Source of the DNA: Candidatus Omnitrophota bacterium
Lineage (GTDB): Bacteria; Omnitrophota; Gorgyraeia; Zapsychrales; Aceulaceae
NCBI GenBank assembly: GCA_029564765.1
Contig: JAKQPK010000075.1
Coordinates: 4,603 to 68,602, forward strand
Length of the DNA stretch: 64,000 bases
Direction: 5' to 3'
Shown here one piece after another: positions 9,453-26,086 of this stretch. The translations under genes and the position numbers were made by a program. The notes below the pieces were generated by a model, which worked only from the letters and a program-made list of their open reading frames with translations, did no database searches and was not told the DNA's origin. Each line of letters begins with the position of its first letter. Within the stretch, counting starts at the first letter, position 1.

Positions 9453-9927
9453 GTTGGCCATTTATCCAGGCACGTTTGACCCCATCACATATGGGCATAT
9501 CGATATTATCGCGAGAACTCGCCGTCTTTTTCCACAGGTTGTCGTTGCGGTCGCTCAAACATCCCGCAAGAATTTACTTTTTGATATTGATGAACGCGTA
9601 CGCATGGTCCGTCAGGCCGTCAAGGGCTTATCCGGGGTTCGCGTTGAAGCGTTCAACGGCCTCGTGGTAGATGTCGCGAAAAAATACGATACGAATATCC
9701 TGATCCGTGGATTGAGGATGGTATCGGACTTTGAGTATGAATTTCAGATGGCCTTAACTAATCGCCGTTTGGCTGGCAAGGTCGAGACTGTTTTCTTGAT
9801 GCCGTCCGAACAATATTCGTTTATTTCATCGACCTTGCTCAAAGAAGTCGCGCGTCTTGGGGCGGACATCTCAACGCTTGTGCCAAAGCATGTCGAGAAA
9901 AAGCTTAAGGCAAAGCTTGCATCATGA
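9442..9927 (+). CDS. coaD: Phosphopantetheine adenylyltransferase
   Basis: 'AIYPGTFDPITYGHIDII' is the nucleotidyltransferase H/T-x-G-H motif. Length 161 aa. Confidence 0.9.
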   Translation: MMSRLAIYPGTFDPITYGHIDIIARTRRLFPQVVVAVAQTSRKNLLFDIDERVRMVRQAVKGLSGVRVEAFNGLVVDVAKKYDTNILIRGLRMVSDFEYEFQMALTNRRLAGKVETVFLMPSEQYSFISSTLLKEVARLGADISTLVPKHVEKKLKAKLAS

Positions 9928-10340
9928 AATTTGATATTCGCAGTATTTCTTCGACAGGATGTGCTGTTGAAGGTTTCTTGAAACAAGAAGATTTTTGTGT
10001 TCGTATTCATGAGATCGAATGCCTTGCGCCTATTCAGCTTTCCGGCAGAATAGAAAAAACTTCAGCAATGGTCAGAGCGCAGATCAATGTAAAAACAGTC
10101 TTTCGTTATATATGTGGCCGCTGCCTAGAAACGTGTGATAAAGAGTTTTGTGAGCATCTTGATCTTCATTATCCTGTTGAGTCGCAAGAGAACTACATTG
10201 ATATCGGCGAAGATGTTCGCCAGGAGATCCTGCTGGGATTCCCGGACCGCGTCGTGTGTCAAGACCAATGCAAGGGCTTGTGTCCAAGGTGCGGCGTGAA
10301 TTTAAATCAGGAACAGTGCGGGTGCGGAAAGAATGAGTAA
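9924..10340 (+). CDS. yceD: DUF177 / YceD-family protein (large-subunit ribosomal accumulation protein), located upstream of rpmF
   Basis: Conserved position before rpmF-plsX. CxxC...CxxC pattern 'CGRCLE...CPRCGVNLN'. Confidence 0.7.
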   Translation: MKFDIRSISSTGCAVEGFLKQEDFCVRIHEIECLAPIQLSGRIEKTSAMVRAQINVKTVFRYICGRCLETCDKEFCEHLDLHYPVESQENYIDIGEDVRQEILLGFPDRVVCQDQCKGLCPRCGVNLNQEQCGCGKNE

Positions 10341-10821: not shown

Positions 10822-11808
10822 ATGAACATTATTGTCGACGCGATGGGCGGGGATCATGCTCCGCGAGAAATTGTCGATGGAGCGATCCAGGCGGTTAACG
10901 AATTCAACGTTAACATAACGTTTACGGGCGTTGAAGCCAAGATCCGAGCTGAGTTAGCCAAGTACGATTATCCGAAGGAAAAGATCAAGATCATCCATAC
11001 CGATGAAGTCGTGGATATGCACGATCCGGCTACCACCTCGATCCGCAAGAAGAAAAATTCTTCCATTTCTTTGGGTATCAATCTTCTGAAAGAATCCACA
11101 ACCTATAACGCGTTTATTAGTGCCGGCAACACGGGAGCGGTCGTGTGCGCGGCCACATTCTTGCTGGGAATGCTTCCGGGCGTGGAGCGTCCTGCTATTG
11201 GCCTTGTCATCCCAACCTTAAATAAATTTTCTTTCTTAATCGATGTGGGCGCCAATACAGACCCGAAGCCGGAGCATTTATTGCAGTCCGCGATCATGGC
11301 AAAGGTATACGCTCAAGAAGTCATGGGCATCAACGATCCGCGCATTGGTTTGCTGAATATTGGCGCCGAAGAAAGCAAGGGGACGGATTTCGTCAAAGAC
11401 GCGCATAAACTTTTTCTGGAGCGTTTGTCCAATTTTGCTGGCAATGTCGAAGCTAATGAGATTTTTGCGGGCCGCTGTGACTGTATCATTTGCGATGGCT
11501 ATGTCGGTAACGTAGTCATCAAGATCTCAGAAAGCCTGATGGAGTCCGCCTTAACGTTGATCCGGCGTGAGGTCAAAAAAAGTCCTATGTCTATGCTGGG
11601 AGCCATGCTCATGCGTGGATGCATGCGTGATATCAAGAAGCACGCGGATTATACCGAATACGGCGGCGCACCGCTTTTGGGTGTCAACGGCCTTGTGATG
11701 ATCAGTCATGGGCGCTCAAACGCGAAAGCTATTAAGAACGCGATCCGGGCGACGATCCACGAGATCGAAAACAATGTCATTGACCATATCATTCAAGAGG
11801 TTGTCTAA
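10822..11808 (+). CDS. plsX: Phosphate acyltransferase PlsX
   Basis: 'IVDAMGGDHAP', 'SAGNTGA', and the conserved yceD-rpmF-plsX-fabH-fabD operon context. Confidence 0.9.
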   Translation: MNIIVDAMGGDHAPREIVDGAIQAVNEFNVNITFTGVEAKIRAELAKYDYPKEKIKIIHTDEVVDMHDPATTSIRKKKNSSISLGINLLKESTTYNAFISAGNTGAVVCAATFLLGMLPGVERPAIGLVIPTLNKFSFLIDVGANTDPKPEHLLQSAIMAKVYAQEVMGINDPRIGLLNIGAEESKGTDFVKDAHKLFLERLSNFAGNVEANEIFAGRCDCIICDGYVGNVVIKISESLMESALTLIRREVKKSPMSMLGAMLMRGCMRDIKKHADYTEYGGAPLLGVNGLVMISHGRSNAKAIKNAIRATIHEIENNVIDHIIQEVV

Positions 11809-12788
11809 TGACGCCTGTCCAGATCACTGCTGTTGGCCATTATGTTCCTTCCCGCAAGTTGACCAATGCTGATCTTGAGAAGATAGTCGATACATCTGAT
11901 GAGTGGATCGTCACGCGCACAGGCATCAAAGAGCGCCGCATTGCCGGCGAGCACGAAAAAACAAGCCATTTAGCGATCGAGGCTGCCCGCCAAGTTTTAC
12001 ACAACGCCAAGATCGCCGCGAGCAAGATCGACCTGATTATCGTCGCGACAACGTCCCCAGACAGTAATTTTCCTTCTGTCGCATGCCTTGTTCAAAAAGC
12101 CTTGGGCGCAAGATCCGCGATTGCTTTTGATGTGTCAGCTGCTTGCACAGGATTTATTTACGCGATCTCAGTGGCGCATCAATTTTTATTGGCGAAAACA
12201 TACAAGAATGCTCTTGTGATCGCCGCGGACCGTTTGACGACCATGATCGACTGGCAAGATCGCAATACATGTGTTTTGTTCGGTGATGGGGCGGGGGCGT
12301 GCCTGCTGGAGTCCGGGGATAAAAAGGGGATCTTAGCAGAACATCTTGAAAGCTACGGTGAGTATGGTGAGCTGATGAAGATCATCGTTCCTGAAACACG
12401 GCACCCTTTAAAACCAAAGCATGCAAATGGAGTTTTACCTTATATTCAGATGCAAGGGCCTGAGCTATTTAAGATCGCGGTTAATTCGATGGCGGACTGC
12501 GTCGAGAAAGCCTTGGAAAAAGCCAAGATCACGATCAGCGAGGTGGCGTGCGTTGTGCCTCATCAGGCCAACGACCGTATCATCAGCGCGGTCGCGAAAA
12601 AGCTGGACATCCCTAAGGAGAAGTTTTTTATCAATATCGAGAAGTATGGCAATATGTCAGCAGCTTCAGCAGCGGTAGCGCTTTTTGAAGCAGTTGAGTT
12701 GGGGCGTATTCGCAAAGGCGATTACGCGGTCTTGGTCGCGTTCGGGGCAGGGCTTGTCGCTGGTGCGATCGTCATCAAATGGCAATAA
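11808..12788 (+). CDS. fabH: 3-oxoacyl-ACP synthase III
   Basis: 'GHYVPSRKLTNADLEKIVDTSDEWIVTRTGIKERR', active-site Cys 'AACTGF', 'HQANDRII'. Its ATG overlaps the plsX stop. Confidence 0.9.
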   Translation: MTPVQITAVGHYVPSRKLTNADLEKIVDTSDEWIVTRTGIKERRIAGEHEKTSHLAIEAARQVLHNAKIAASKIDLIIVATTSPDSNFPSVACLVQKALGARSAIAFDVSAACTGFIYAISVAHQFLLAKTYKNALVIAADRLTTMIDWQDRNTCVLFGDGAGACLLESGDKKGILAEHLESYGEYGELMKIIVPETRHPLKPKHANGVLPYIQMQGPELFKIAVNSMADCVEKALEKAKITISEVACVVPHQANDRIISAVAKKLDIPKEKFFINIEKYGNMSAASAAVALFEAVELGRIRKGDYAVLVAFGAGLVAGAIVIKWQ

Positions 12789-12801
12789 AGGAATATTGTT
12801 T

Positions 12802-13728
12802 ATGATAAATGTGGCATTGATTTTTCCAGGTCAGGGCGCTCAAAAGGTGGGCATGGGAAAGGAGTTGTACGATGCGATCCCAGCGGCCAAAGCTATTTTT
12901 GATTCTGCTCAGGCAACACTCGGCAATGACCTTCTTGATGTTATTTTTAATGGGCCCCAGGAAAAGCTGACACTTACATCCTACTCACAGCCGGCGATCG
13001 TTTCTTGCAGTATCGCAGGATTAAAGGCGCTTCAAGCGCATCCGAAATTTGGCGAGCTGAAGATCGCTTTTACGGCTGGACTTAGCTTGGGGGAATATTC
13101 GGCCTTGATCGCATCTGGAGCGCTCTCTTTTGAGGATGGTATTCGCTTGGTGCAAAAACGCGGCGCTTTTATGGATGAAGCCTGCAAGCTGCAACAAGGT
13201 GCCATGGCGGCCATTATCGGATTTCCTAAGGACAGGCTCAAAGAGATCTGCCGCGAAACCGGAGCGCAAGTCGCTAACTTTAATTCTCCAGAACAGATCG
13301 TCATTACAGGTCATGCTGACAAGGTCCAGGCTGCTGTTTCCGCGATCGAAAAAGAAAATCCAAAGAATATCGTTATGCTTGAAGTGGCCGGAGGATTTCA
13401 TTCAAGCCTGATGAAGTCTGCCGCGGAAAAGTTTTCTGCGGAGCTTTCAAAATTTAATTTGCAGACATTGAGCATCCCCCTCGTTGGCAACGTCAAAGGT
13501 GTGGCCGAAACAGATCCTGAAATCATCCGCCAAAACCTGCCTTTACAGATCACCTCATCTGTTCTCTGGGAAGATTCTGTCCGTTTTATGGCCGCGCAAG
13601 GTGTGAAGTATTTCATTGAGATCGGCCCTGGCAAGATCCTCAAAGGCCTTATTCGTCGTATCGATCCTACGTTAACTGTCTTTAACATTGAGAAGCCGCA
13701 GGATATAGAAACAGTATTTAGCATTTAG
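12802..13728 (+). CDS. fabD: Malonyl-CoA:ACP transacylase
   Basis: 'ALIFPGQGAQKVGMG', active-site 'GLSLGEYSAL'. The ATG at 12802 is chosen over the ORF-track's upstream extension at 12685, which overlaps fabH. Confidence 0.9.
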   Translation: MINVALIFPGQGAQKVGMGKELYDAIPAAKAIFDSAQATLGNDLLDVIFNGPQEKLTLTSYSQPAIVSCSIAGLKALQAHPKFGELKIAFTAGLSLGEYSALIASGALSFEDGIRLVQKRGAFMDEACKLQQGAMAAIIGFPKDRLKEICRETGAQVANFNSPEQIVITGHADKVQAAVSAIEKENPKNIVMLEVAGGFHSSLMKSAAEKFSAELSKFNLQTLSIPLVGNVKGVAETDPEIIRQNLPLQITSSVLWEDSVRFMAAQGVKYFIEIGPGKILKGLIRRIDPTLTVFNIEKPQDIETVFSI

Positions 13729-13877
13729 TCTTTAGTGTTTAGCTTTTGCCGACCTATCGAAATACTGTTTGAAGATACTAGATATTTTTCATTTTTCCCG
13801 CCAAAGATTTTCCATATTTTTAATGAATCACTGATATAAACTATGTATACTAATATATATTTATATATAAGGACGTT

Positions 13878-14312
13878 ATGCCTTGCCTTGGGACCAAAGA
13901 AATAGAAGCGATCCTGCCACAGAAATACCCATTTCTGCTCATTGATAGGGTTTTAGATTACAAAGAAGATGACTATCTTGTTGCTATTAAGAATATCACG
14001 GGTAACGAATGGAGTTCTGTTGACAGCGTCAGCCAGCTTGAATGTTGGCCGGAGATGTTGGCTGTAGAAGGAGCTTTGCAGGCTGCAATTATTTTGTATC
14101 ATAAAAGTAAGAATTTCCCCGGAGAGACTCCGGTATATTTTATTGGAAAAGTTATTTCTGAGTTTTATTGCTTACCTAAAATTGGTGATTCTTTAAATAT
14201 TGTAGTTTCCGCAGAAAAGCTAATGCGCATTGGTGGATATGCGCGTATCGATTTAAAGAATCAAAAAGAAAGAATTTCCAGCATCGAAATCTTTTTTAGC
14301 GTAAAGAGATGA
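13878..14312 (+). CDS. FabZ/FabA-like hotdog-fold 3-hydroxyacyl-ACP dehydratase. First gene of a low-GC coupled module
   Basis: 'LPQKYPFLLIDRVL' matches the FabZ N-terminal signature. 144 aa. Preceded by a ~150-bp AT-rich gap. Its stop overlaps the next start. Confidence 0.7.
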   Translation: MPCLGTKEIEAILPQKYPFLLIDRVLDYKEDDYLVAIKNITGNEWSSVDSVSQLECWPEMLAVEGALQAAIILYHKSKNFPGETPVYFIGKVISEFYCLPKIGDSLNIVVSAEKLMRIGGYARIDLKNQKERISSIEIFFSVKR

Positions 14313-15538
14313 TTAAACAAAAAAAAGACGAACGACGTGTCGTGGTCACAGGCTTAGGCGTTGTTTCGTCTATTGGTATTGGCTGGCAGGAATTCTGGAA
14401 AAACCTTCTCGCTGGAAAATCCGGTATCAGCAAGATCACTTCATTTGACACATCCTCCTACGACCGTCACTATGGCGGTGAAGTCAAAGATTTTAATCCC
14501 TATAAATTTATTGATAAGCGAAAAGCGGACCGTATGGGCCGGGCTTCACAGATGGCTATTGCTAGCTGTAATCTTGCATTATCTGACGCAGATTTCTCTT
14601 TTGCAAGAGTTGGCAGAAGAAAGGTGGGGGTTTTTATCGGTACCACAACAGGAGAAATTGCACGCCTAGAGCAATACTACAAGACTTGGCATAGCACGAA
14701 CAAAAAAATACCAGTTCCTATGAACCTAATTACTTTTCCAACCTATTGCCTAAGCTCACATGTTAGTAGATATTTTCGGCTTTCTGGACCAAGCGTGGTT
14801 TTTTCTAATGCATGCGCTGCCGGGAATTATGCCATTGGTTACGCGTATGATTTGATAAAGAATGGGCGTATTGAACTTGCTATCGCTGGCGGAGTTGATG
14901 GCATTTCAAATATTGTGTTTACTGGCTTTAGTCGTTTATTAGCTATAGCTCCAGAAAAATGTCAACCTTTTGATAAGGATAGAAAAGGGATGATTCCTGG
15001 GGAGGGGTCTGGAATTCTTTTTCTGGAGAATTTAGATAGCGCATTAAAGAGAAAAGCTAGAATCTATGCTGAAATTTATGGATATGGTCTTTCTTGCGAT
15101 GGCCATCATATGACAAGCCCTTCTCCTGACGGAGTAGTTCTTTCAATAAAGAAATGTTTAGATGCTTCAGGAGTCTGTTGCGATGCTGTAGATTATGTCA
15201 GCGCTCATGGGACCGGTACAATAGAGAATGATCGATTGGAATGCCAAGCTATAAAAACTATTTTTGGGGCACGGCGGAGAAAAATTCCCGTATCATCTAT
15301 TAAGTCTATGATTGGTCATTGCATGGGAGCATCTTCTGCGATAGAGGCGATTACATGTTGTCTTGCGATAAAAGATCAAAAGATTCCACCAACAATTGGT
15401 TTTAACGAAAAAGATCCTGATTGTGATATTGATTGCGTTCCAAATAAATCCCGAGAAGCAAAAGTAGGCGTTGTTTTGAACAATTCGCTAGCATTTGGTG
15501 GTAATAACGCTAGCTTGCTATTAGGAAAAAGAAAATGA
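14309..15538 (+). CDS. Beta-ketoacyl-ACP synthase (KAS I/II-like condensing enzyme)
   Basis: Catalytic triad context 'SNACAAGNYAIGYA', 'SAHGTGT', 'GHCMGASS'. 409 aa. Overlaps its neighbours by 4 nt. Confidence 0.8.
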   Translation: MIKQKKDERRVVVTGLGVVSSIGIGWQEFWKNLLAGKSGISKITSFDTSSYDRHYGGEVKDFNPYKFIDKRKADRMGRASQMAIASCNLALSDADFSFARVGRRKVGVFIGTTTGEIARLEQYYKTWHSTNKKIPVPMNLITFPTYCLSSHVSRYFRLSGPSVVFSNACAAGNYAIGYAYDLIKNGRIELAIAGGVDGISNIVFTGFSRLLAIAPEKCQPFDKDRKGMIPGEGSGILFLENLDSALKRKARIYAEIYGYGLSCDGHHMTSPSPDGVVLSIKKCLDASGVCCDAVDYVSAHGTGTIENDRLECQAIKTIFGARRRKIPVSSIKSMIGHCMGASSAIEAITCCLAIKDQKIPPTIGFNEKDPDCDIDCVPNKSREAKVGVVLNNSLAFGGNNASLLLGKRK

Positions 15539-16950
15539 ATGATGAAAGATATCAGGTAATCATTATTGGGGCTGGAATTGGTGGCCTAGTTTCTGGATGT
15601 CTTCTTGCGCTTGCAAAGAAGAAGGTTTTAATTGTCGAAAAGAATGATGTTCCAGGAGGATACTGCACATCGTTTAAGCAATTTGGTCTGCATTTCGATA
15701 CTTGTGCCCATTCATTGGGAGATTTATCGAAGCAAGGCAAGTTGTTTGCGATACTAAATAAGATTGGAGTCTTAGAAAAGGTAAAGAGAGTCCGGTACGA
15801 TCCAGGAGACATCATTGTCACAGAAGATTTTGAAGTGTGTTTTAATAATTCTTTGGATAAGACAATAAGAAATCTTTCAAGCATTTTTCCAAAAGAAAAA
15901 GAAGCAATTTCTGCATTCTTTAAGAATATTGTATGTCGACAAGATTTTGTTCAGGCAATGCAGCTTCATAAACAAACTTTTAGCATGCTTCTTGATGATT
16001 ATTTTGTTGATTTGCGACTTAAGAAAATTTTAGGTCTTTTTCCGCTTGGAAATCTCGGAACTCCGGCAAACCACGTCTCAGCGTTTATTGCCGTGAAACA
16101 TTTCAAGCAATTCATTGTTGATGGAGGTTATTATTTATCTAGGGGGATGGATGATTTACCAAGAGCTTTGATGCGGCGCTTCACAGCTCTTGGCGGAAAG
16201 CTTAGCTTTGGATCAGAGGTTGCCTCGGTGAAATGCAGAAATAATACAGCTGTAGGGATTATTTTACGAAATGGTCGTGAATTTTCTGCAGATTTTATTA
16301 TTTCTGCTTGCGACCTAAAGAGTGTTTTCATGAGAATGTTAACTGATTTGAAAACAAGGAAGCGTGCAAAAAATATTATTCGAGAAATGCAGCCATCCCT
16401 TTCTTTATTTGTTGCGCATGTTGTATTGAAAAAGAAGCTATGCAATTCTTATTCTCCTGGGACAAATGTCTGGCGTCTTCGTAATTATGAATATGATCGA
16501 GTGCATAAACGGCAAATTAATTATTCTGATATGTCTGTAGGGTGGATAATGCTTAGAATTGGTATCAGAAAAAAGACTGTAACGCTATTTACGAACGCTC
16601 CTTATCGGGGTAGTTCGTTTTGGAGGAGGAATAGGGTTGATTTCTTTAGCAGAATCCTAAAATTAGCCTCAGATGTAGTCCCTGGAATAGATAACAATGT
16701 AAAATCAGTTCAGCTTTTAACTCCTTTTGGGCTAAACAAGATGACTGGAAATTATAATGGTGCAGGATATGGATGGGCCAGCACTCCGAATCAGTCTTTT
16801 GTAGCTGACCTCTTAAGCGACGGAGTCGCTAAGAACCTTTTTTTATCTGGTCATTGGGGTTCAGTTGCCCAGGGAATCCCTGGAGTGGCTATTGCAGGAG
16901 AGCGTGTTTCAAGAATAATTTTAGCTAGAATGAAAAATGTCAAGATCTAA
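15535..16950 (+). CDS. FAD/NAD(P)-dependent oxidoreductase of the phytoene-desaturase/amine-oxidase (CrtI-like) family
   Basis: Rossmann motif 'VIIIGAGIGGLVSGCLLA...VLIVEKNDVPGG'. About 470 aa, typical CrtI/RetSat-family length. Confidence 0.7.
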   Translation: MNDERYQVIIIGAGIGGLVSGCLLALAKKKVLIVEKNDVPGGYCTSFKQFGLHFDTCAHSLGDLSKQGKLFAILNKIGVLEKVKRVRYDPGDIIVTEDFEVCFNNSLDKTIRNLSSIFPKEKEAISAFFKNIVCRQDFVQAMQLHKQTFSMLLDDYFVDLRLKKILGLFPLGNLGTPANHVSAFIAVKHFKQFIVDGGYYLSRGMDDLPRALMRRFTALGGKLSFGSEVASVKCRNNTAVGIILRNGREFSADFIISACDLKSVFMRMLTDLKTRKRAKNIIREMQPSLSLFVAHVVLKKKLCNSYSPGTNVWRLRNYEYDRVHKRQINYSDMSVGWIMLRIGIRKKTVTLFTNAPYRGSSFWRRNRVDFFSRILKLASDVVPGIDNNVKSVQLLTPFGLNKMTGNYNGAGYGWASTPNQSFVADLLSDGVAKNLFLSGHWGSVAQGIPGVAIAGERVSRIILARMKNVKI

Positions 16951-18235
16951 TAATCGAAAAAAAGTTGTGGTAACTGGCTTAGGACCAATTACATCAGTTG
17001 GAATTGGAGCTGATGCATTATGGCAATCGCTTTTTGAGGGAAAAACGGACATTGTTGAACATAAGCATATTTTGTCAGGGGAGCTAATTGATACCTTTCC
17101 TTTGCATATGATTCAATCGTTTAATCTCGATGATTTTAAGATTCCTGAGAATGGGCTGAAATCTATACGAGACTGGAAAAAAGACGCTATAGATAGAGAG
17201 TTGAGTCTTTTTCTTGCTTCAATTAAGGTTGCTCTTGACGATAGCAAAATAAAAAATTCTTATCGTAAGGATATCGGTTTTGTTTTTACTCAAGAAATGC
17301 CAGGGGTAGAAGATTTTTTTGAAAAGGTCATCATAAAGACAATTAATTTTAGTCGTACAGGTAAAAAAATGACACACAAAAATGTTAGCGAATACTTGTA
17401 TGAAGCATGCGAGGCCCAGGGATACGATCTCCAGACTTTTATGTATATATATTTTGCCCTAAAGTGTTTTGGTTGCCACGGATATTCTTTATTTATCAAC
17501 AATGCATGTGCATCAGGATCCTATGCGATTGAAGAAGCTGCTCGGATTATTCGTTCTGGCCATCAGAAAATTATAATTGTTTCCGGGGGAGACTCTCCGA
17601 TAAAATCTTTTAAATATAATTGGTTTAAAAAGCGTGGCCTGTACTCTAGCGATGGTCTTGTAAGACCATTTTGTCGTAACTCTAATGGAATTGTTTTTGG
17701 TGAAGGCGTTTCATCTCTGGTATTGGAAGATTTTGATCATGCAAAAAAGCGTGAAGCTAAGATTTACGCGGAATATCTTGGAGGGGGTTTTTCACAGGAA
17801 GCATGGAAGGTGACATTGCCAAATATCACCGAGAATTTCTATTTGTCAGCCTTTCAGAAAGGACTTAAGGAGTCGAAAGTTGATATTTCGGAAATCGATT
17901 TTGTTAATGCCCATGGGGTAGGCATTAAAATTACTGACAATTATGAGGCTCGTACGATTAAGAAAGTTTTTAGCAGGTTAAAGAATAAGCCTTTAGTTAC
18001 CGCGTTTAAACCTTACATTGGTCATAATTTAGGTGGGAGCAGCTTGATCGAGAGCGTGATATCTATACTTTGTTTAAAAAACAATTGTATTCTGCCAACT
18101 TTAAATACGGAAGATTATGATGAAAATCTTGGGATAAATCTTGCAAGAGAGAAAGTTGAGAAAGATTTACGCATTTTTGCAAAGATGTCGTGTGGTTTTG
18201 CTGGGTTTAATTCGGTTATTTTCTTTAGAAAGTAA
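16937..18235 (+). CDS. Second beta-ketoacyl-ACP synthase-like protein (divergent KAS)
   Basis: 'NNACASGSYAIEEAARII' (Cys retained), 'NAHGVG', 'GHNLGGSS'. Overlaps the upstream gene by 14 nt. Confidence 0.7.
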   Translation: MSRSNNRKKVVVTGLGPITSVGIGADALWQSLFEGKTDIVEHKHILSGELIDTFPLHMIQSFNLDDFKIPENGLKSIRDWKKDAIDRELSLFLASIKVALDDSKIKNSYRKDIGFVFTQEMPGVEDFFEKVIIKTINFSRTGKKMTHKNVSEYLYEACEAQGYDLQTFMYIYFALKCFGCHGYSLFINNACASGSYAIEEAARIIRSGHQKIIIVSGGDSPIKSFKYNWFKKRGLYSSDGLVRPFCRNSNGIVFGEGVSSLVLEDFDHAKKREAKIYAEYLGGGFSQEAWKVTLPNITENFYLSAFQKGLKESKVDISEIDFVNAHGVGIKITDNYEARTIKKVFSRLKNKPLVTAFKPYIGHNLGGSSLIESVISILCLKNNCILPTLNTEDYDENLGINLAREKVEKDLRIFAKMSCGFAGFNSVIFFRK

Positions 18236-18241
18236 TTATCC

Positions 18242-20434
18242 ATGGCTCAATCATTTAGTTTATTGCGAATACTTTTTATCTTATCTGGCCTTACGCTGTC
18301 CCTAACCTGTTTCGCGCTTCTTTTTATAATTTTAAAATTTGGAAGAACCAAATTAACAAAAGTTTGGGCTTGTTTTAATTTATCAGTCTTTGTTTGGGGA
18401 TTAGGTGTTTCGATGATTGGGTTTGCGAAAAATGATAGCGAAGCTTGGTTAGCTTGGAAGATTGGTCATGCGGGAGCGATTTTTATTGCTGGAACGTTCT
18501 TTCACGTCGTCAGCGTCCTGACTGATAAGGGGTTGCGGCGCTTTATCGCAGTTGTTTATAGCTATTCTTGTGTTTTCTTGCTTTTGAATATCCTAGATCA
18601 ACTTAATATCAGTATCATTGAAAAATTTGATGGAATATATTTTATATTTCCAGAAAACTTTTTGTACCCATTCTTAATTACAGCTTGGGTGGTAATCGTT
18701 TTATTTGCATTCATTATTTTAATACAATCTTTGCGGACTGTCAGCCAAAGATTATACAATCAGCTTCGGTATTTTCTGATTGGGACGACAGTCGGATTTC
18801 TTGGCGGTCTTAGCAATTTTCTCCCAATGTTTAATGTAAACATTTATCCTTTAGGAAATTTTTTGATATCATTTTATTGTTGTTTCTGCAGCTATGCAAT
18901 CTTGAGGCATCGCCTTATGGATGTCAGCATTGCGATAACTCGGACGGGGATTTTTGTTTTAGTCTATTCGCTCGTTCTTGGCATCCCTTTTGCCATCGCT
19001 TTCGGACTGAAAGATTATTTATTTTCTATTCTTGGAAATATTTGGTGGATTATTCCTTTATTTGCCTCAACCATGCTGGGCACTGCTGGGCCATATCTTT
19101 ATTTCTTTATCCAGCGCAAGGCAGAAGAAAAGTTATTAGCCGACCAAAAGCGCTACCAATCGACCTTAAAGCAAGCGTCGGCAGGCATGACGCGTATCAA
19201 GGACCTAAAAAAGCTTTTAAATTTGATCGTCTATATTCTCTCTAGAACGGTTAATCTAACGCATGCATCTCTGTATCTCTACAATCCAAAAAGTCGTGAC
19301 TATACCCTTGAGGCTGTGAGAGGCGAGAAGCTTTCGAAGAAGAATTATTACATTAGCCGTCGCTGTGCGTTGATTGATTATCTGGAAAAAGCAAAGCTGC
19401 CTATCGTAGCTGAAGAGATCAAGCAGCAAAGTCAAGATTACAACAATGAAAACTTGAAAGAAGTCTACGCGCAGCTTAAGGAAATTGGCGCGGAAGTTGC
19501 TGTTCCGATCCTTACGGAAAAGCGCTTGTTGGCAATAGGTGTTCTCGGTAAAAAAAATACAGGATCGATGTATACACCGGATGACTTGACAGTTTTCTCA
19601 ATTCTGGCAAGCCAGGTCGCGCTTGCTATCGAAAACGCTCAGTTCTACGAAGAGTCCAAACAGACCCAGGAACAACTTTTCCAGGCGGAAAAAATGGCGA
19701 CGATCGGCACGATGGCTGACGGCCTGTCACATCAGATCAATAATCGTCTACATACGCTTGGCTTTATTGCCGGAGACGCTTTGGACACCATCAACCTGAG
19801 CAAGGATGTTCAGGATCCTTCAAGGTTCCAGTCGATCTTGGCCGAAATATCCAAAGCACTTGTAAAGATCCAGGAAAATGTCCGTCAAGGCGGCGAGATC
19901 GTTCAAGGATTATTGCGCTATACGCGAAAAGGCCAGGAAGGCTTTGGGGAGGTGGTCTTTGACAAGCTTGTCGATGAAGTTGTTGAGATGGCGCAATTCA
20001 AGATCAAAAAAGAATATGTGGCGATCGTTAAGGACTATCCTCAAGATCTGCCTGGGATCCATGGGAATTTTACGCAGCTGCAAGAAGTCTTTTTTAATAT
20101 CATTGATAACGCGTATGACGCGATCATGCAAAAGAAACATGAGATCGCGGATGAAAATTTTAGCGGCAAGATCAAGATCTCAACTCGCCAGACCGAGAAA
20201 TTTTTGGAGGTCAATGTTCTCGATAACGGCATGGGCGTTAAAGAAGATGACCAGACAAAGCTCTTTACACCATTTTTCACGACAAAAGTGTCAAGTCGTA
20301 AAGGTACGGGATTGGGGCTTTATGTGATCAAGAAGATCGTTGAAGACAACCATCAGGGAGAAGTCTTCATTTCCTCCGAACATAAAGTAGGGACATTGTT
20401 CATTGTCAGGCTACCGATAGGAAAGAAGGGATAA
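18242..20434 (+). CDS. Sensor histidine kinase with a polytopic (7TM-type) N-terminal sensor, a GAF-like region, and HisKA/HATPase
   Basis: About seven N-terminal TM helices. H-box 'DGLSHQINNRLHTL', N-box 'FFNIIDNAYDA', G-box 'GTGLGLYVIKKIV'. Confidence 0.8.
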   Translation: MAQSFSLLRILFILSGLTLSLTCFALLFIILKFGRTKLTKVWACFNLSVFVWGLGVSMIGFAKNDSEAWLAWKIGHAGAIFIAGTFFHVVSVLTDKGLRRFIAVVYSYSCVFLLLNILDQLNISIIEKFDGIYFIFPENFLYPFLITAWVVIVLFAFIILIQSLRTVSQRLYNQLRYFLIGTTVGFLGGLSNFLPMFNVNIYPLGNFLISFYCCFCSYAILRHRLMDVSIAITRTGIFVLVYSLVLGIPFAIAFGLKDYLFSILGNIWWIIPLFASTMLGTAGPYLYFFIQRKAEEKLLADQKRYQSTLKQASAGMTRIKDLKKLLNLIVYILSRTVNLTHASLYLYNPKSRDYTLEAVRGEKLSKKNYYISRRCALIDYLEKAKLPIVAEEIKQQSQDYNNENLKEVYAQLKEIGAEVAVPILTEKRLLAIGVLGKKNTGSMYTPDDLTVFSILASQVALAIENAQFYEESKQTQEQLFQAEKMATIGTMADGLSHQINNRLHTLGFIAGDALDTINLSKDVQDPSRFQSILAEISKALVKIQENVRQGGEIVQGLLRYTRKGQEGFGEVVFDKLVDEVVEMAQFKIKKEYVAIVKDYPQDLPGIHGNFTQLQEVFFNIIDNAYDAIMQKKHEIADENFSGKIKISTRQTEKFLEVNVLDNGMGVKEDDQTKLFTPFFTTKVSSRKGTGLGLYVIKKIVEDNHQGEVFISSEHKVGTLFIVRLPIGKKG

Positions 20435-20459
20435 AGGGGCAAAGGACTAAAGGGTTAAA

Positions 20460-20852
20460 GTGATTGAAAAAAGAAAATTGAAAACATATAAAGATCTTAT
20501 TGCTTGGCAGAAGTCTTACAGTTTGTGCTTAGAAATATATCGGGCAACGAAGATATTCCCGCAATCTGAACAATATGGCCTGACCGCACAAATGAAGCGA
20601 AGCGCCCTTTCCGTTCCGTCAAATATTGCTGAAGGGTATGTGCGGCACGGAACGCGAGACTATATTCGTTTTCTTTATATCGCTTACGCTTCGCTTGCAG
20701 AACTAGAAACACAATTGCTTCTTGCAAAAGATTTGGGATATATTAAATCTGATGACTTTAAGCAGATCATTGGTCTGCAAAACGAGGTTCAGAGGGTTAT
20801 GCGCGGGCTAATCGAGTCGCTTAAATCAAGATCTTCACAAAATGCCCTGTAA
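20460..20852 (+). CDS. Four-helix-bundle protein (23S rRNA intervening-sequence protein family)
   Basis: 'YKDLIAWQKSYSLCLEIYRATKIFPQSEQYGLTAQMKRSALSVPSNIAEGY' is the canonical family signature. Flanked by the 11-bp IR 'agggataaagg'/'cctttatccct'. Confidence 0.85.
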   Translation: MIEKRKLKTYKDLIAWQKSYSLCLEIYRATKIFPQSEQYGLTAQMKRSALSVPSNIAEGYVRHGTRDYIRFLYIAYASLAELETQLLLAKDLGYIKSDDFKQIIGLQNEVQRVMRGLIESLKSRSSQNAL

Positions 20853-20899
20853 TCCTATGATCCTTTATCCCTGTAATCCTATTAATATAAGGACTGCCT

Positions 20900-21259
20900 A
20901 TGCCAAAACTACTTATTGTTGATGATGAAACGGATATCACGGAGTTCGCGAAGCATTTCTTCGAGAAGCGGGGGATCGAGGTAATTACAGCTTCAGGAGG
21001 TCAGGAAGCACTGGATCTGATAAGCTTAAGCAATCCTGATCTCACGCTTTTGGATGTGCGCATGGGAGAGGTTACAGGTGTTGATGTCTTGCGTAAACTT
21101 CGCGAATCAGGTAATATGATGAAAGTTGTCATGGTAACTGGCGTAGAGGATCCCGCTATTATTAAGCAAGCACAAGATCTGGGCATAAGCGGTTTTATAC
21201 ATAAACCCTTAGCCTTGGATGAATTAGAGCGGGTTGTGATGAAGGAATTAGAAGGATAA
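20900..21259 (+). CDS. Stand-alone response-regulator receiver (CheY-like)
   Basis: 'LLIVDDE...D', 'LLDVRMGEVTGVDVL', 'VVMVTG'. 119 aa. Confidence 0.85.
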   Translation: MPKLLIVDDETDITEFAKHFFEKRGIEVITASGGQEALDLISLSNPDLTLLDVRMGEVTGVDVLRKLRESGNMMKVVMVTGVEDPAIIKQAQDLGISGFIHKPLALDELERVVMKELEG

Positions 21260-21333
21260 AAAGTATTTAGTCGATAGTCGTTAGTATTTAGCGCGCTGAC
21301 ACCAGATACTATATACCAACAACTGACACAGCT

Positions 21334-22539
21334 ATGTCACTCAATTACAAAAAAGAACTCGAACGTGCAAGCCGTGTTATGATCCGGATCCATGATCCGA
21401 GCATCTTGATACGTTTGATCATTCGCTTGATCGTGCGCAAGGTTGACGTTAAGCACGCTGGCGTTTTGTTGTTTGACGCTAACCGCGATTGCTACGTTCT
21501 TACTCTCTCAGGCGGGGAGAGCGGGACCCGTATCCCGCAGGGGTTCGCGAAATTTGTTAAAGAAAACCCATTGATCAAATTCTTCGTTGATAAAGAATAT
21601 CAATCGCTTATAAGGCGCCATGGGGCTTTGACCATCGAAGAACTTAACCGCATGATCTGGAGCGAAAATGTCTTGCCGCAGAATGAACAGCATAAAGATT
21701 TCTTGCACAAGATCGCTCAGCAGATGGAGATGTTCAATGTAGCGGTCTGTATCCCAGCGTATTTTCGTGAGCATCTTGTAGCGCTTTTGCTTCTTGGCGA
21801 AAAGACAAACGGACATGTTTATCAGCAGGAAGAGTTTGATTTTCTAGCGGCGCTGTCTTCGGATGTTGCCATGGCCATTCAGAACGCGCGGCTTATTGAG
21901 GATTTGCGCAAAGAAGTTGAGAAGAATAAAGCGCTTTTTATCAACACCGCTCTTTCACTTGCTTCGGCCATAGAGGCTAAAGACCGTTACACACGTGGCC
22001 ATACAGAGCGTGTTACAAAATACGCGTTAGCGATTGCCGATGAGCTTGTACACAACCGCGCCTTTCCTCTTTCGAAAAATTTCTCTGAGGATCTGTACAT
22101 TGCGTCTTTGTTGCATGATGTAGGGAAAATAGGCGTTCCTGAGAGCATCTTGAGCAAAGAAACAGGCCTTACGGACCAGGAATTCCAGCAGATACGTCTA
22201 CATCCGCTAAGAGGAGCCGATATTTTAAAAGCTATTCCGGAATTTGAAGAGTGCCTTAAGGGTGTTAAATATCACCACGAGCGCTATGATGGCCGAGGCT
22301 ATCCGGAGGGCTTAAAAGGCGAAGAGATCCCGCTCGTTGCTGCCATTGTCGCTGTCGCGGATAGCTATGACGCGATGACCTCTGATCGAACTTACCGCAA
22401 AGCCATGTCCAAGGACGCTGCTATAAGCGAGATCGAGAAAAATATAGGTATTCAATTTCATCCGGTGGTGGCAAAGGCGTTTTTGGAGGTGTTGAGGAAA
22501 AGCGAAAAAGAGTTAATAAAAGTTACAAATGGTTACTAG
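21334..22539 (+). CDS. HD-GYP domain phosphodiesterase with N-terminal GAF-like region
   Basis: 'HTERVTKYALAIADEL', 'HDVGKIGVPESIL', 'HHERYDGRGYPEGLKGEEIP'. Confidence 0.85.
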   Translation: MSLNYKKELERASRVMIRIHDPSILIRLIIRLIVRKVDVKHAGVLLFDANRDCYVLTLSGGESGTRIPQGFAKFVKENPLIKFFVDKEYQSLIRRHGALTIEELNRMIWSENVLPQNEQHKDFLHKIAQQMEMFNVAVCIPAYFREHLVALLLLGEKTNGHVYQQEEFDFLAALSSDVAMAIQNARLIEDLRKEVEKNKALFINTALSLASAIEAKDRYTRGHTERVTKYALAIADELVHNRAFPLSKNFSEDLYIASLLHDVGKIGVPESILSKETGLTDQEFQQIRLHPLRGADILKAIPEFEECLKGVKYHHERYDGRGYPEGLKGEEIPLVAAIVAVADSYDAMTSDRTYRKAMSKDAAISEIEKNIGIQFHPVVAKAFLEVLRKSEKELIKVTNGY

Positions 22540-22661
22540 GGGTTACGCTTAAAGCGCGTCTTCCATCTTCCTTCACGGTCTAATTTATATAATGCGTCAA
22601 TAAACCTGTCCATTTGAAAGCATGCGGTTTTGATGAGCGTTGTTATTTTCTTATGGTCTTC

Positions 22662-22934
22662 TTACGGGATCAGGTTATCTTCAAGGCAATCATCCATATC
22701 GCCTCCTAGTTCTTCCAGCGAACCTCTGCTGATTTTGATGGAATGTGCGAATTCACCAACGCTATCTTTTGCATAGCCCTCGCGGATATTCTGCTTTGCG
22801 CTTCTGGCCGCATCGCATATTTGACTTACCAGTCGCAGTCGCGACTTTTGGAAGGCCCCTGTCATTTTATTGATAAGACGCCTGATCTCGCAAACATTCT
22901 TGTAAAATTCCAGATTTTCGTAGGCTCGACCCAT
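22662..22934 (-). CDS. Four-helix-bundle protein (IVS-protein family), short member. The start is uncertain because the ORF extends to 23018 and overlaps the kinase gene's end
   Basis: 'NIREGYAKDSVGEFAHSIKISRGSLEELGGDMD' family-type C-terminal half. Confidence 0.6.
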   Translation of the reverse strand: MGRAYENLEFYKNVCEIRRLINKMTGAFQKSRLRLVSQICDAARSAKQNIREGYAKDSVGEFAHSIKISRGSLEELGGDMDDCLEDNLIP

Positions 22935-25717: not shown

Positions 25718-26086
25718 TTAATCAACAAGGTTAAGTTTTTTGATAAGGTTACGAATCATCTTAGATTCAAACTGAATTTTCTCAATCAAGCGAGTTTTAA
25801 ACTGGTTTTCGATATATTTTAAGTCATAACAAATTTCAAGTTGCGTTTCAAGCTCGGAGCAGGACCCAAGCGCGTGAAAAAGGAATTGTCGATATTCTTT
25901 ATTATGATAACGGCTAAATCCTTCTGCAATATTTGAAGGTATTGAGATTGCGGATCTGCGCATTTGAGAAACAAGAGAAAAGAGTTCTTCTTTTGGAAAT
26001 ATTTTTGTTCTTTCGTATATTTCTAAGACAATATCCTTCCCCAGGCTCCAGATTTTTAGTTCCCTAAAGCTTTTTATCTTATCCAT
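25718..26086 (-). CDS. Four-helix-bundle protein (IVS-protein family)
   Basis: 'IKSFRELKIWSLGKDIVLEIYERTKIFPKEELFSLVSQMRRSAISIPSNIAEGFSR'. Flanked by the perfect 15-bp IR 'gtatttagtatctag'/'ctagatactaaatac'. Confidence 0.85.
   Translation of the reverse strand: MDKIKSFRELKIWSLGKDIVLEIYERTKIFPKEELFSLVSQMRRSAISIPSNIAEGFSRYHNKEYRQFLFHALGSCSELETQLEICYDLKYIENQFKTRLIEKIQFESKMIRNLIKKLNLVD

Follow-up and report, generated by a model that had tools for sequence, protein, structure and literature searches.

An accessory, exchangeable ladderane-type cassette very probably tied to an adjacent two-component system in an Omnitrophota genome

We analysed a stretch of 64,000 nucleotides from a Candidatus Omnitrophota bacterium (assembly GCA_029564765.1, contig JAKQPK010000075.1, positions 4,603 to 68,602 of the forward strand; referred to as a whole as the window), in which four overlapping genes at 13878-18235 encode a hotdog protein (HOT), a beta-ketoacyl synthase (KS-A), a CrtI-like flavoenzyme (CRT) and a second, very divergent ketosynthase (KS-B). 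Downstream of these lie genes for a histidine kinase with a seven-transmembrane (7TM) sensor, a stand-alone receiver and a GAF-HD-GYP protein. The four genes very probably constitute an accessory and exchangeable cassette of the 'ladderane' type, similar to a short-chain fatty-acid synthase (FAS) or polyketide synthase (PKS), which is linked in function to the two-component system beside it and which serves neither housekeeping fatty-acid synthesis nor the synthesis of ladderanes. We give about an even chance to the more specific proposal that the cassette directs synthesis of a putative lipid-like signal, with the 7TM kinase as the cognate receptor.

Results

A variable slot that changes together with the kinase sensor

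The window corresponds to contig C35 of a 98%-complete genome of 1.86 Mb (G000; G117 denotes its genus-mate, other G numbers and L numbers comparison genomes and loci, and C numbers contigs of G000), and its DNA is also present in activated-sludge metagenomes from several studies. By its match to itself in a genome census, the window belongs to the class Gorgyraeia. HOT (13878-14312, 144 aa), KS-A (14309-15538), CRT (15535-16950, 471 aa) and KS-B (16937-18235, 432 aa), all on the forward strand, overlap successively by 4, 4 and 14 nt. They start after a gap of 149 bp behind fabD, which ends at 13728, and the kinase gene follows 6 nt downstream. This gene map agrees with that of a first-pass annotation made from the letters and open reading frames (ORFs) of the window, and Pfam and NCBIfam agree with the four gene identities given there. 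All four frames are open and none is a pseudogene.

The module thus lies between fabD on one side and three signalling genes on the other (HisKA_7TM-GAF kinase, receiver, GAF-HD-GYP protein). Within the window's order the frame is conserved: fabH-fabD, HOT and KS-A come first, and a variable slot is followed by the 7TM-GAF kinase, the response regulator and the GAF-HD-GYP gene. The slot holds CRT and KS-B in the window, a 383-aa methyltransferase (in the place of CRT) and KS-B in G117, CRT and a methyltransferase-like gene in L005, CRT and a NAD_binding_4 thioester reductase (FAR) in L034 and G036, and a shikimate-dehydrogenase-like gene in G138. The 364-aa gene that follows CRT in L005 was considered as a degenerate KS-B, to which it has no similarity, and is methyltransferase-like instead. 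Because slot content differs among genomes in this way, CRT is an interchangeable tailoring step and not a core chain builder.

The kinase varies along its length. Between G000 and G117, its domains are 35% (7TM), 75% (linker), 69% (GAF), 90% (dimerisation and phosphotransfer, DHp) and 81% (catalytic, CA) identical; KS-B is 40% and KS-A 61% identical between the same genomes, and flanking proteins are 73-80% identical (80% for FabH, 73% for FabD).

Base composition draws a boundary at a similar place. At 38.4% GC, the module falls well below the genome mean of 45.8% (SD 2.1% in windows of the same size), at the 0.7th percentile. Its GC content at third codon positions (GC3), taken here as a measure independent of amino-acid composition, is ~0.31 against 0.49 +/- 0.06 in long ORFs and lies in the lowest 1%, whereas fabH and fabD are of normal to high GC3 (0.51-0.56, 62nd-94th percentile). 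The first-pass annotation had described a stretch of lower GC than the flanking fab genes that ended at 18235. Its low composition is confirmed, but the end is not, as the low-GC3 block takes in the sensor-coding (7TM) part of the kinase gene, its initial 700-900 nt (GC3 0.35), beyond which the values are 0.46-0.54. From the hotdog gene to ~19100, GC3 ranges between 0.23 and 0.40, and then steps up to 0.49-0.54; the same step occurs inside the kinase gene in G117 and G036.

Metagenomic contigs added a further view of these edges. Run X5, from activated sludge of another study, contains contigs that match the flanks at 90-95% identity and turn unlike the window at 14556, inside KS-A, and at 19141, which corresponds to kinase residue ~300, just past the last transmembrane segment. 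These are single low-depth contigs from one study and are supporting, not decisive. No transcriptome was found among the runs that contain this DNA; the four wastewater runs labelled RNA-Seq were flagged as probably DNA, and two of them (X8 and X10) yielded short identical contigs only. The uncovered stretches of X5, X8 and X10 were left out of the evidence. The compositional and variable island accordingly spans 13878-19141 on the forward strand by GC3 and the X5 contigs, and comprises the four biosynthetic genes and the 7TM-coding part of the kinase gene. Taken together, the divergence of the 7TM domain, the GC3 step inside the kinase gene and the X5 breakpoints indicate that the unit of exchange consists of the synthesis genes plus the sensor half of the receptor.

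The aberrant composition fits horizontal exchange. Horizontal acquisition, which had been proposed from composition, also agrees with the grouping of CRT with proteins from other families, with the presence of a different gene in G117, and with the divergence of X5 between 14556 and 19141. Separately, IS200/Y1-type transposase genes adjoin kinase-linked clusters in two unrelated genomes (L006 8369-9367; L125 13818-14495), which fits mobility of the kinase-linked loci.

Coupling to a kinase, a receiver and an HD-GYP protein

The kinase gene (18242-20434, forward strand, 730 aa) encodes a HisKA_7TM sensor (~aa 1-280, nt 18242-19080) with about 7-8 hydrophobic segments in residues 1-280, then GAF, a DHp domain with the H-box 'LSHQINN', and HATPase_c. 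The stand-alone CheY-like receiver (20900-21259, forward strand, 119 aa; PF00072, 92 bits) has the Asp pocket, is 78% identical in G117 and is syntenic in L005, L034 and G036. The GAF-HD-GYP protein (21334-22539, forward strand, 401 aa; PF13487 HD_5, 125 bits) has intact motifs (HD261, HHE314 and GYP322), is 79% identical in G117 and is likewise syntenic in relatives; by these motifs it is a putative phosphodiesterase of cyclic di-GMP (c-di-GMP) and the candidate output of the circuit.

The suggestion in the first-pass annotation that the kinase gene belongs with the module held up across phyla. A sensor kinase gene lies directly after the CRT gene in 13 of 15 mapped loci (from Nitrospirota, Omnitrophota, Elusimicrobiota, Planctomycetia and metagenome contigs without a placement). 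The same arrangement was seen in five of six copies in a second survey. The kinase gene starts within a few dozen bases of the CRT gene, including in L007, a metagenome contig of unknown phylum. In a census of HATPase_c genes within 2.5 kb, 42 of 90 close CRT homologues had such a neighbour, as compared to 3 of 207 distant homologues and 15 of 300 random places. Two or three paralogous systems can coexist in one genome, and each then has a kinase of its own.

Additional kinase genes were seen inside two of the comparison loci. In G036, an extra HisKA_7TM-type kinase lies between KS-A and the CrtI-like gene (L122 4685-6340), and in G002 four more kinase-like tblastn matches, which may represent two genes, lie between KS-A and the thioester-reductase genes (L129 10891-14035). 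The idea of a rhodopsin-like sensor, in which a polyene aldehyde would form a Schiff base within the 7TM domain, was rejected, as the aligned 7TM segments of 11 kinases have no invariant Lys.

Relatives of the hotdog protein and the ketosynthases

HOT is amxFabZ-like by PDB matches and motif alignment. Its five best PDB matches, 8AYD (the best, 70 bits), 8AYI, 7QV0, 8AYB and 8AYC, are all amxFabZ entries (PMC10139942), and canonical FabZ structures reach at most 49 bits. It has the Ile69 typical of amxFabZ (Ile in place of the tunnel Gly) and retains the Glu, with Ser at the position of the catalytic His48. As a FabZ-type dehydratase has both the GHFP His and the Glu, its initial description as a hotdog dehydratase stands as to the fold and is not supported as to the activity. 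The catalytic His is gone from all five syntenic Omnitrophota hotdogs (Ser here; K, D, N or Y in the four relatives) and is retained in the FabZ encoded on contig C30 (GHFP) and in cluster-embedded dehydratases elsewhere. Since none of the five hotdogs at the locus has the His, the alignment points to a conserved non-dehydratase role for the His-less protein beside an intact C30 FabZ. Precomputed Pfam matches name the relatives' hotdog ApeP/ApeI-like.

KS-A, assigned from PDB matches, the fabF model and a tree, scores 428 bits against 9s5h_B, 354 against the ishigamide ketosynthase Iga11 (6kxd) and at most 308 against canonical FabF. Its Cys-His-His triad is intact, and it is of the amxFabF2/Iga11 kind found in highly reducing type II PKSs. 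The Planctomycetes locus L015 has the gene order of anammox Cluster I (hotdog, KS, KS', CrtI-like, B12 radical SAM), and its two adjacent ketosynthase genes match chains B and C of 9s5h at 661 and 557 bits; because this pair stands in Cluster I order, we take the two chains to be amxFabF2 and amxFabFmut, which form a heterodimer (bioRxiv 10.64898/2026.05.19.726425).

A ketosynthase tree with mapped active-site states resolved three families. The KS-A group is Cys-His-His throughout and contains the amxFabF2 orthologue. The second is a triad-less clade (support 100/99), hereafter chain-length-factor (CLF)-like, which contains the amxFabFmut orthologue together with a G000 ketosynthase from contig C30 (F-N-E). 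The third is the long-branch KS-B clade (100/100), with members from the window, G117, G118, L047 and G089, from Omnitrophota genomes only and with intact triads; the KS-B triad is in register with that of amxFabF2, and KS-B is not of the CLF type. KS-A-type genes occur in about one third of genera, and the family extends to Polyangia, Thermoanaerobaculia and Actinomycetes. Weak matches to the cispentacin proteins AmcE and AmcF were dismissed as generic, with canonical FabF outscoring the module's ketosynthases on AmcF.

These relationships stand apart from housekeeping fatty-acid synthesis. The first-pass annotation had noted that the module stands where fabG-acpP-fabF usually follow. Since the canonical trio is encoded on contig C69, with all three proteins above model cut-offs (FabF at 632 bits), the module is no replacement for it. 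The module's proteins in turn miss the housekeeping equivalog cut-offs, with KS-A at 416 and KS-B at 217 bits against 493.75 for FabF (TIGR03150), and HOT at 62 bits against 113 for FabZ (NF000582).

Dispersed candidate partner genes and contiguous clusters

A contiguous set of candidate partner genes lies on C30 (locus L097 7074-9508, reverse strand), where the CLF-like ketosynthase gene is followed by genes for a ketoreductase (KR) and a FabZ with GHFP. An orphan acyl carrier protein (ACP), encoded on C61, shares 54-55% identity with the ACPs of clusters in relatives and ~33% with AcpP. The first-pass annotation had noted that ACP, KR and enoyl reductase (ER) are missing; this holds inside the module, does not hold genome-wide for KR and ACP, and holds for the system as regards ER. 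Thus a highly reducing type II PKS set (discrete KS, CLF, KR, dehydratase and ACP, without ER) is present, spread over C35, C30 and C61, with KS-A (C-H-H) and the ketosynthase of the amxFabFmut clade (F-N-E) encoded on different contigs. The C30 trio is embedded among riboflavin genes (ribD, ribE-like, ribBA) and a phosphoesterase gene, and at 78% identity between genus-mates is far more conserved than the C35 cassette.

Equivalent genes are contiguous in other families of Gorgyraeia. G118 has two sets, one ordered KR-CLF-FabZ-KSA-ACP-KSB-CRT-kinase-receiver and the other CLF-(shikimate-dehydrogenase-like)-KR-ACP-KSA-CRT-kinase-receiver-receiver-HDGYP, and G020 has two further complete contiguous sets. 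The probes used detected no enoyl reductase gene in the complete G118 and G020 clusters. Their flanks contain no acyltransferase, exporter or thioesterase gene; additional regulators are found there instead.

Such a gene set could belong to an ordinary secondary-metabolite cluster for a polyene pigment or antimicrobial lipid, of the aryl-polyene or ishigamide kind, with the two-component system controlling its expression or linked by chance. We regard this as improbable. The KS/CLF, KR, dehydratase and ACP set without ER follows highly reducing type II PKS logic, Iga11 is the second-best solved relative of KS-A, and the occurrence of the KS-A-type family in Polyangia, Thermoanaerobaculia and Actinomycetes is in keeping with it, as are a composition and patchiness typical of biosynthetic gene clusters (BGCs); listings of the antiSMASH type already contain such clusters, as passages of one metagenomic study relate (PMC9902471). 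It leaves unexplained, however, why the exchange unit includes the sensor of the kinase without its catalytic core, why a receiver without DNA-binding output is followed by an HD-GYP enzyme, and why each paralogous cluster has a private kinase directly after its last biosynthetic gene; nor are resistance, export or attachment genes present.

Two further loci of G000 were recorded in passing. Contig C18 (L096 6146-13576) carries another type II PKS-like cluster, distinct from the first and remarkable in a genome of only 1.86 Mb. It comprises genes for a ketosynthase (C-H-H), a triad-less ketosynthase (R-D-N), an ACP, a cyclase-like protein of 277 aa and an SRPBCC polyketide-cyclase-like protein, together with two small ORFs, a major facilitator superfamily (MFS) transporter and a short-chain dehydrogenase/reductase (SDR). 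On C20, an open frame of 454 aa includes a FabZ domain (~73949-74317) and, judged by its length, may be an LpxC-FabZ fusion; NCBIfam has a model for such a bifunctional protein.

The CrtI-like flavoenzyme

CRT combines the Pfam domains Amino_oxidase and NAD_binding_8 and scores 103 bits against the crtI_fam model (TIGR02734), below the cut-off of 238. Its predicted structure (mean confidence, pLDDT, of 87) best matches the fold of CrtD (4rep; Foldseek E 5e-32, TM-score 0.79), with CrtI (4dgk) and plant phytoene desaturase (5mog) also found, and the glycines of its FAD-binding GxGxxG motif (G12, G14 and G17) are invariant in the alignment. The possibility of a frameshifted pseudogene, raised at first, is thereby dispelled: the frame is open and the protein folds with confidence. 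The family consists of uncharacterised proteins of ~470 residues from metagenomes alone, the closest of which is 43% identical. In a census, its close relatives were concentrated in Gorgyraeia (~78 of 536 genera), Thermodesulfovibrionia (~24 of 154) and Brocadiia (~18 of 52).

In a quick, midpoint-rooted tree, which is provisional, the kinase-linked proteins form one clade of 27 that includes the window's CRT (support 97). Within it, the window's CRT clusters with those of L005 and G020, which belong to other families, and not with those of its order-mates, and is thus incongruent with the flanking genes. The anammox-type phytoene dehydrogenase (PDH) of L015 falls outside this clade.

These data bear on the first proposal for the module, an oxygen-independent route to unsaturated acyl chains. 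As a general source of unsaturated fatty acids for the membrane it is not upheld: the CRT gene is patchy, occurring in 29 of 151 genomes of the class, it is absent from G117 with the rest of the locus kept, and tailoring genes differ even among close relatives.

CRT might instead supply an enoyl-ACP reductase that the organism lacks, so that the module would complete an ordinary type II FAS. CrtI-family enzymes include saturases. Neither FabI, FabK nor FabV was found in the 98%-complete genome, where the FabV blank is uninformative because the FabV control matched no reference genome. In this genome fabH, fabD, fabG, acpP, fabF and fabZ are all present despite the lack of a recognisable enoyl-ACP reductase; among the 151 genomes sampled from the class, a true FabI was found in 12 and a FabK-like gene in ~45, and most Gorgyraeia sampled are without a known ER. 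The phyletic pattern is, however, not complementary. Of the 28 other CRT carriers in the class, about 10 possess FabI or a FabK-like gene as well, no departure from the background rate, and in G117 and three of four order-mates FabI, FabK and the CrtI-like gene are all missing. This explanation is largely refuted and we give it next to no credence.

The first-pass annotation had also raised a polyene- or ladderane-like lipid as the product. Its hint at ladderanes was apt insofar as HOT and KS-A are nearest to amxFabZ and amxFabF2 among solved structures, yet such a product is unlikely. A pathway to ladderanes or their precursors outside anammox bacteria would draw on the homology of HOT, KS-A and the C30 CLF-like protein to amxFabZ, amxFabF2 and amxFabFmut, and Omnitrophota and Planctomycetota are both members of the PVC group. 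The CrtI-like gene has the same relative position as kuste3607 (PMC4790861), and a related option is the anaerobic route to polyunsaturated fatty acids proposed by Rattray et al. 2009. Against these, there is no B12 radical-SAM gene in the module or the window neighbourhood, whereas L015 has one directly after its PDH gene. The best B12 radical-SAM-like match in G000 to that of L015 is 27% identical and lies beside an SDR gene on C61 (~216290-217465), unlinked to the module. CRT and the L015 PDH are in different clades of the quick tree, the CrtI-like gene is dispensable in G117, and ladderane lipids are reported from anammox bacteria only (PMC10139942; PMC9902471). We consider either pathway extremely unlikely.

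Flanking and inserted genes

On the left flank, which is conserved, fabH (11808-12788, forward strand; NCBIfam fabH, 411-423 bits) and fabD (ORF 12685-13728, forward strand; NCBIfam fabD, 315 bits) exceed their cut-offs. The longest fabD ORF, from a TTG start, overlaps fabH by ~100 nt (12685-12788). The alignment to the FabD model begins at residue 43, and the true start is probably near 12810. The AT-rich intergenic gap (13729-13877, 26.8% GC) is the left edge of the compositional island. Consensus scans for promoters and terminators over 13400-22800 gave counts at or below shuffled expectation and nothing usable in this gap.

A small four-helix-bundle gene of the 23S rRNA IVP family (20460-20852, forward strand; PF05635, 131 bits) sits between the kinase and receiver genes and is probably an inserted passenger. 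Genes of this bAvd-like family occupy intergenic slots of conserved operons, with three copies in G000, the others being at ~25733-26080 of the window (reverse strand) and on C60. The G117 locus L121 has two such genes (1709-2059 and 9736-10119), one in the kinase/receiver slot and one between fabH and fabD, and L005 and L034 have none in the kinase-receiver interval. These small genes look like mobile passengers. About 7 kb past the signalling genes, the window also contains an ORF of 2619 aa (29713-37572, forward strand).

Discussion

We propose a working model for the cassette. KS-A, paired with the C30 CLF-like protein and acting with KR and FabZ in the absence of an ER, would build a short (~C6-C10) unsaturated or polyenoyl chain on the C61 ACP. 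A short product is favoured because the characterised anammox homologues prefer such substrates, C6-C8 for both amxFabZ and the amxFabF heterodimer amxFabFhet (PMC10139942; bioRxiv 10.64898/2026.05.19.726425). The genes of the variable slot would then tailor and release the chain: CRT may act on a C=C bond by desaturation, isomerisation or saturation, and KS-B may carry out a last condensation; in relatives, a methyltransferase or a thioester reductase would serve in this slot. The 7TM domain of the kinase encoded directly downstream would recognise the lipophilic product, and the kinase would signal through the stand-alone receiver to the GAF-HD-GYP phosphodiesterase, and so to c-di-GMP. Swapping of the synthesis genes and the sensor domain between lineages as a unit would generate strain-specific pairs of signal and receptor.

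Several points weigh against this model. Both a KS-A partnership with the C30 protein and a role for the C61 ACP are suggested by phylogeny and by synteny in other genomes. Release of a diffusible product is an assumption, because no exporter or thioesterase is encoded, and the window itself contains no reductase or methyltransferase for release. The contrast of 35% and 90% identity within the kinase is by itself no proof of co-evolution with a ligand, because membrane sensors generally evolve faster than kinase cores. Seen from the KS-A side, the linkage to kinases is weak (15 of 75, as compared to 30 of 300 random places). The kinase may do no more than control the operon or monitor membrane state, and the position of the module directly after plsX-fabH-fabD (beside fabH-plsX-yceD in L007) would also suit a role in membrane lipids.

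Regulated remodelling of the membrane is the alternative to which these points lead: a specialised acyl chain, whether unsaturated, polyene or modified in another way, would be built into the cell's own membrane lipids, with the 7TM kinase monitoring membrane state in the manner of DesK and acting via c-di-GMP. The location of the locus 3' of plsX-fabH-fabD, the membrane-embedded sensor and the lack of both exporter and thioesterase in cluster flanks would agree with this, and in anammox bacteria the homologous cluster is presumed to act in making membrane lipids. In addition, a search for a membrane desaturase found none, and the FabA/FabB model was never the best match for any scanned hotdog or ketosynthase protein. 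We nevertheless consider remodelling unlikely. Distribution is patchy, both for CRT and for KS-A-type genes, tailoring enzymes are not the same even between genus-mates, and genomes may have two or three paralogous systems with private kinases. The characterised homologues prefer C6-C8 substrates, the reductive and methylating release enzymes of relatives yield neutral products and not acyl donors, the output is an HD-GYP protein and not a transcription factor acting on fab genes, and no acyltransferase is associated with the clusters.

Anammox Cluster I (kuste3603-3608: amxACP, amxFabZ, amxFabF2, amxFabFmut, a phytoene-dehydrogenase-like protein and B12 radical SAM) has the same protein families and likewise a CrtI-fold gene after the ketosynthase genes. 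Here, by contrast, the host belongs to Omnitrophota, the hotdog lacks the catalytic His, there is an additional KS-B, CRT is from another clade, and no B12 radical-SAM gene is present. The CLF-like, KR, FabZ and ACP genes are on other contigs, and genes for a kinase, a receiver and an HD-GYP protein follow, whereas the anammox-type L015 has no kinase gene after its PDH.

The highly reducing type II PKSs for ishigamide (Iga10-16) and aryl polyenes (Ape) share KS/CLF-type proteins, KR, a hotdog dehydratase, a discrete ACP and the lack of an ER with the G000 system, and differ from it in that the CrtI-fold enzyme and the coupling to a kinase are found only here. Ape systems use an aryl starter and include adenylation, glycosyl/acyl-transfer and LolA/MMPL export genes, none of which is part of the G000 system. 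Among flavoenzymes, the CrtI/CrtD desaturases and CrtISO share the fold and the FAD-binding N-terminus with CRT, which scores far below the family cut-off and is encoded among KS/ACP genes and not isoprenoid genes. When anammox CrtI-like homologues were tested, they made no lycopene (PMC4790861).

For the logic of the proposed circuit, the closest parallels are in fatty-acid signalling and in peptide quorum sensing. The diffusible signal factor (DSF) system consists of the synthase RpfF, the sensor kinase RpfC and the HD-GYP regulator RpfG, and in Ralstonia the PhcB/PhcS system uses methyl-ester signals made by PhcB. The common elements are a signal from the fatty-acid pathway, a membrane sensor kinase and an HD-GYP output, and the methyltransferases of relatives recall the PhcB methyl esters; the likeness is one of circuit logic only. 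No crotonase (RpfF) or PhcB homologue was noted here. Pfam and NCBIfam gave no crotonase-family match among the module and flanking genes, the rest of the genome not having been searched for crotonases. The HD-GYP protein carries GAF in place of the REC domain, and the synthase is multigenic and based on ketosynthases. In staphylococcal agr, which uses a peptide signal, the hypervariable block comprises agrB, agrD and the sensor half of agrC. There, as here, the unit of variation is made up of signal-production genes and the sensor half of the kinase gene, with a breakpoint between sensor and transmitter. The proteins are unrelated, and the product here is putatively lipid-like and not a peptide. 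To our knowledge, co-inheritance of synthase genes with the sensor half alone of a receptor is otherwise known from peptide systems.

The cluster type itself is already known. Atypical FabF paralogues and synteny outside anammox bacteria were noted by Rattray et al. 2009, and passages of a later study describe antiSMASH 'ladderane' BGCs in non-anammox metagenome-assembled genomes, including those of Omnitrophota, as present, expressed and of unknown function (PMC9902471). These Omnitrophota BGCs are very probably, on the strength of those passages, clusters of the same kind; the passages make no mention of linkage to a kinase and HD-GYP protein, a variable slot, a co-varying sensor or a dispersed architecture. 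In the papers retrieved by literature searches on these clusters, we found no description of the systematic coupling to a kinase and an HD-GYP protein, the variable tailoring slot, the co-variation or co-transfer of the sensor, the His-less hotdog lineage or the KS-B family. None of these papers links such clusters to kinases, and a search on HisKA_7TM yielded domain-census papers only. The statement that the anammox cluster is 'encountered exclusively' in ladderane producers (PMC10139942) is qualified by the present comparison, according to which the FAS-like core of that cluster occurs outside ladderane producers.

A wider interpretation is tentative, and we consider it less likely than not. 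Systems of this kind may be self-contained, strain-specific circuits for lipid signals, in which the cassette and the 7TM half of the kinase are exchanged in the manner of pherotypes across Omnitrophota, Thermodesulfovibrionia, Elusimicrobiota and Planctomycetota. Anammox Cluster I would then be a derived offshoot, and the FAS-like core would not be specific to ladderanes.

If this is correct, the core of amxFabZ, amxFabF2, amxFabFmut and PDH, the candidate ladderane genes studied most, would belong to a widespread family of cassettes in uncultured anaerobes, usually wired to a kinase outside anammox bacteria, and the ladderane-specific part of the pathway (the B12 radical-SAM step) would be separated from the generic part. 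For genome mining, it follows that 'ladderane' BGC calls in non-anammox genomes most likely reflect such systems and should be treated with caution. We know of no described signalling molecule for Omnitrophota, whose cells are very small and largely uncultured, and the cassette and its kinase offer a testable candidate for the chemistry of cell-cell or self-signalling in this phylum.

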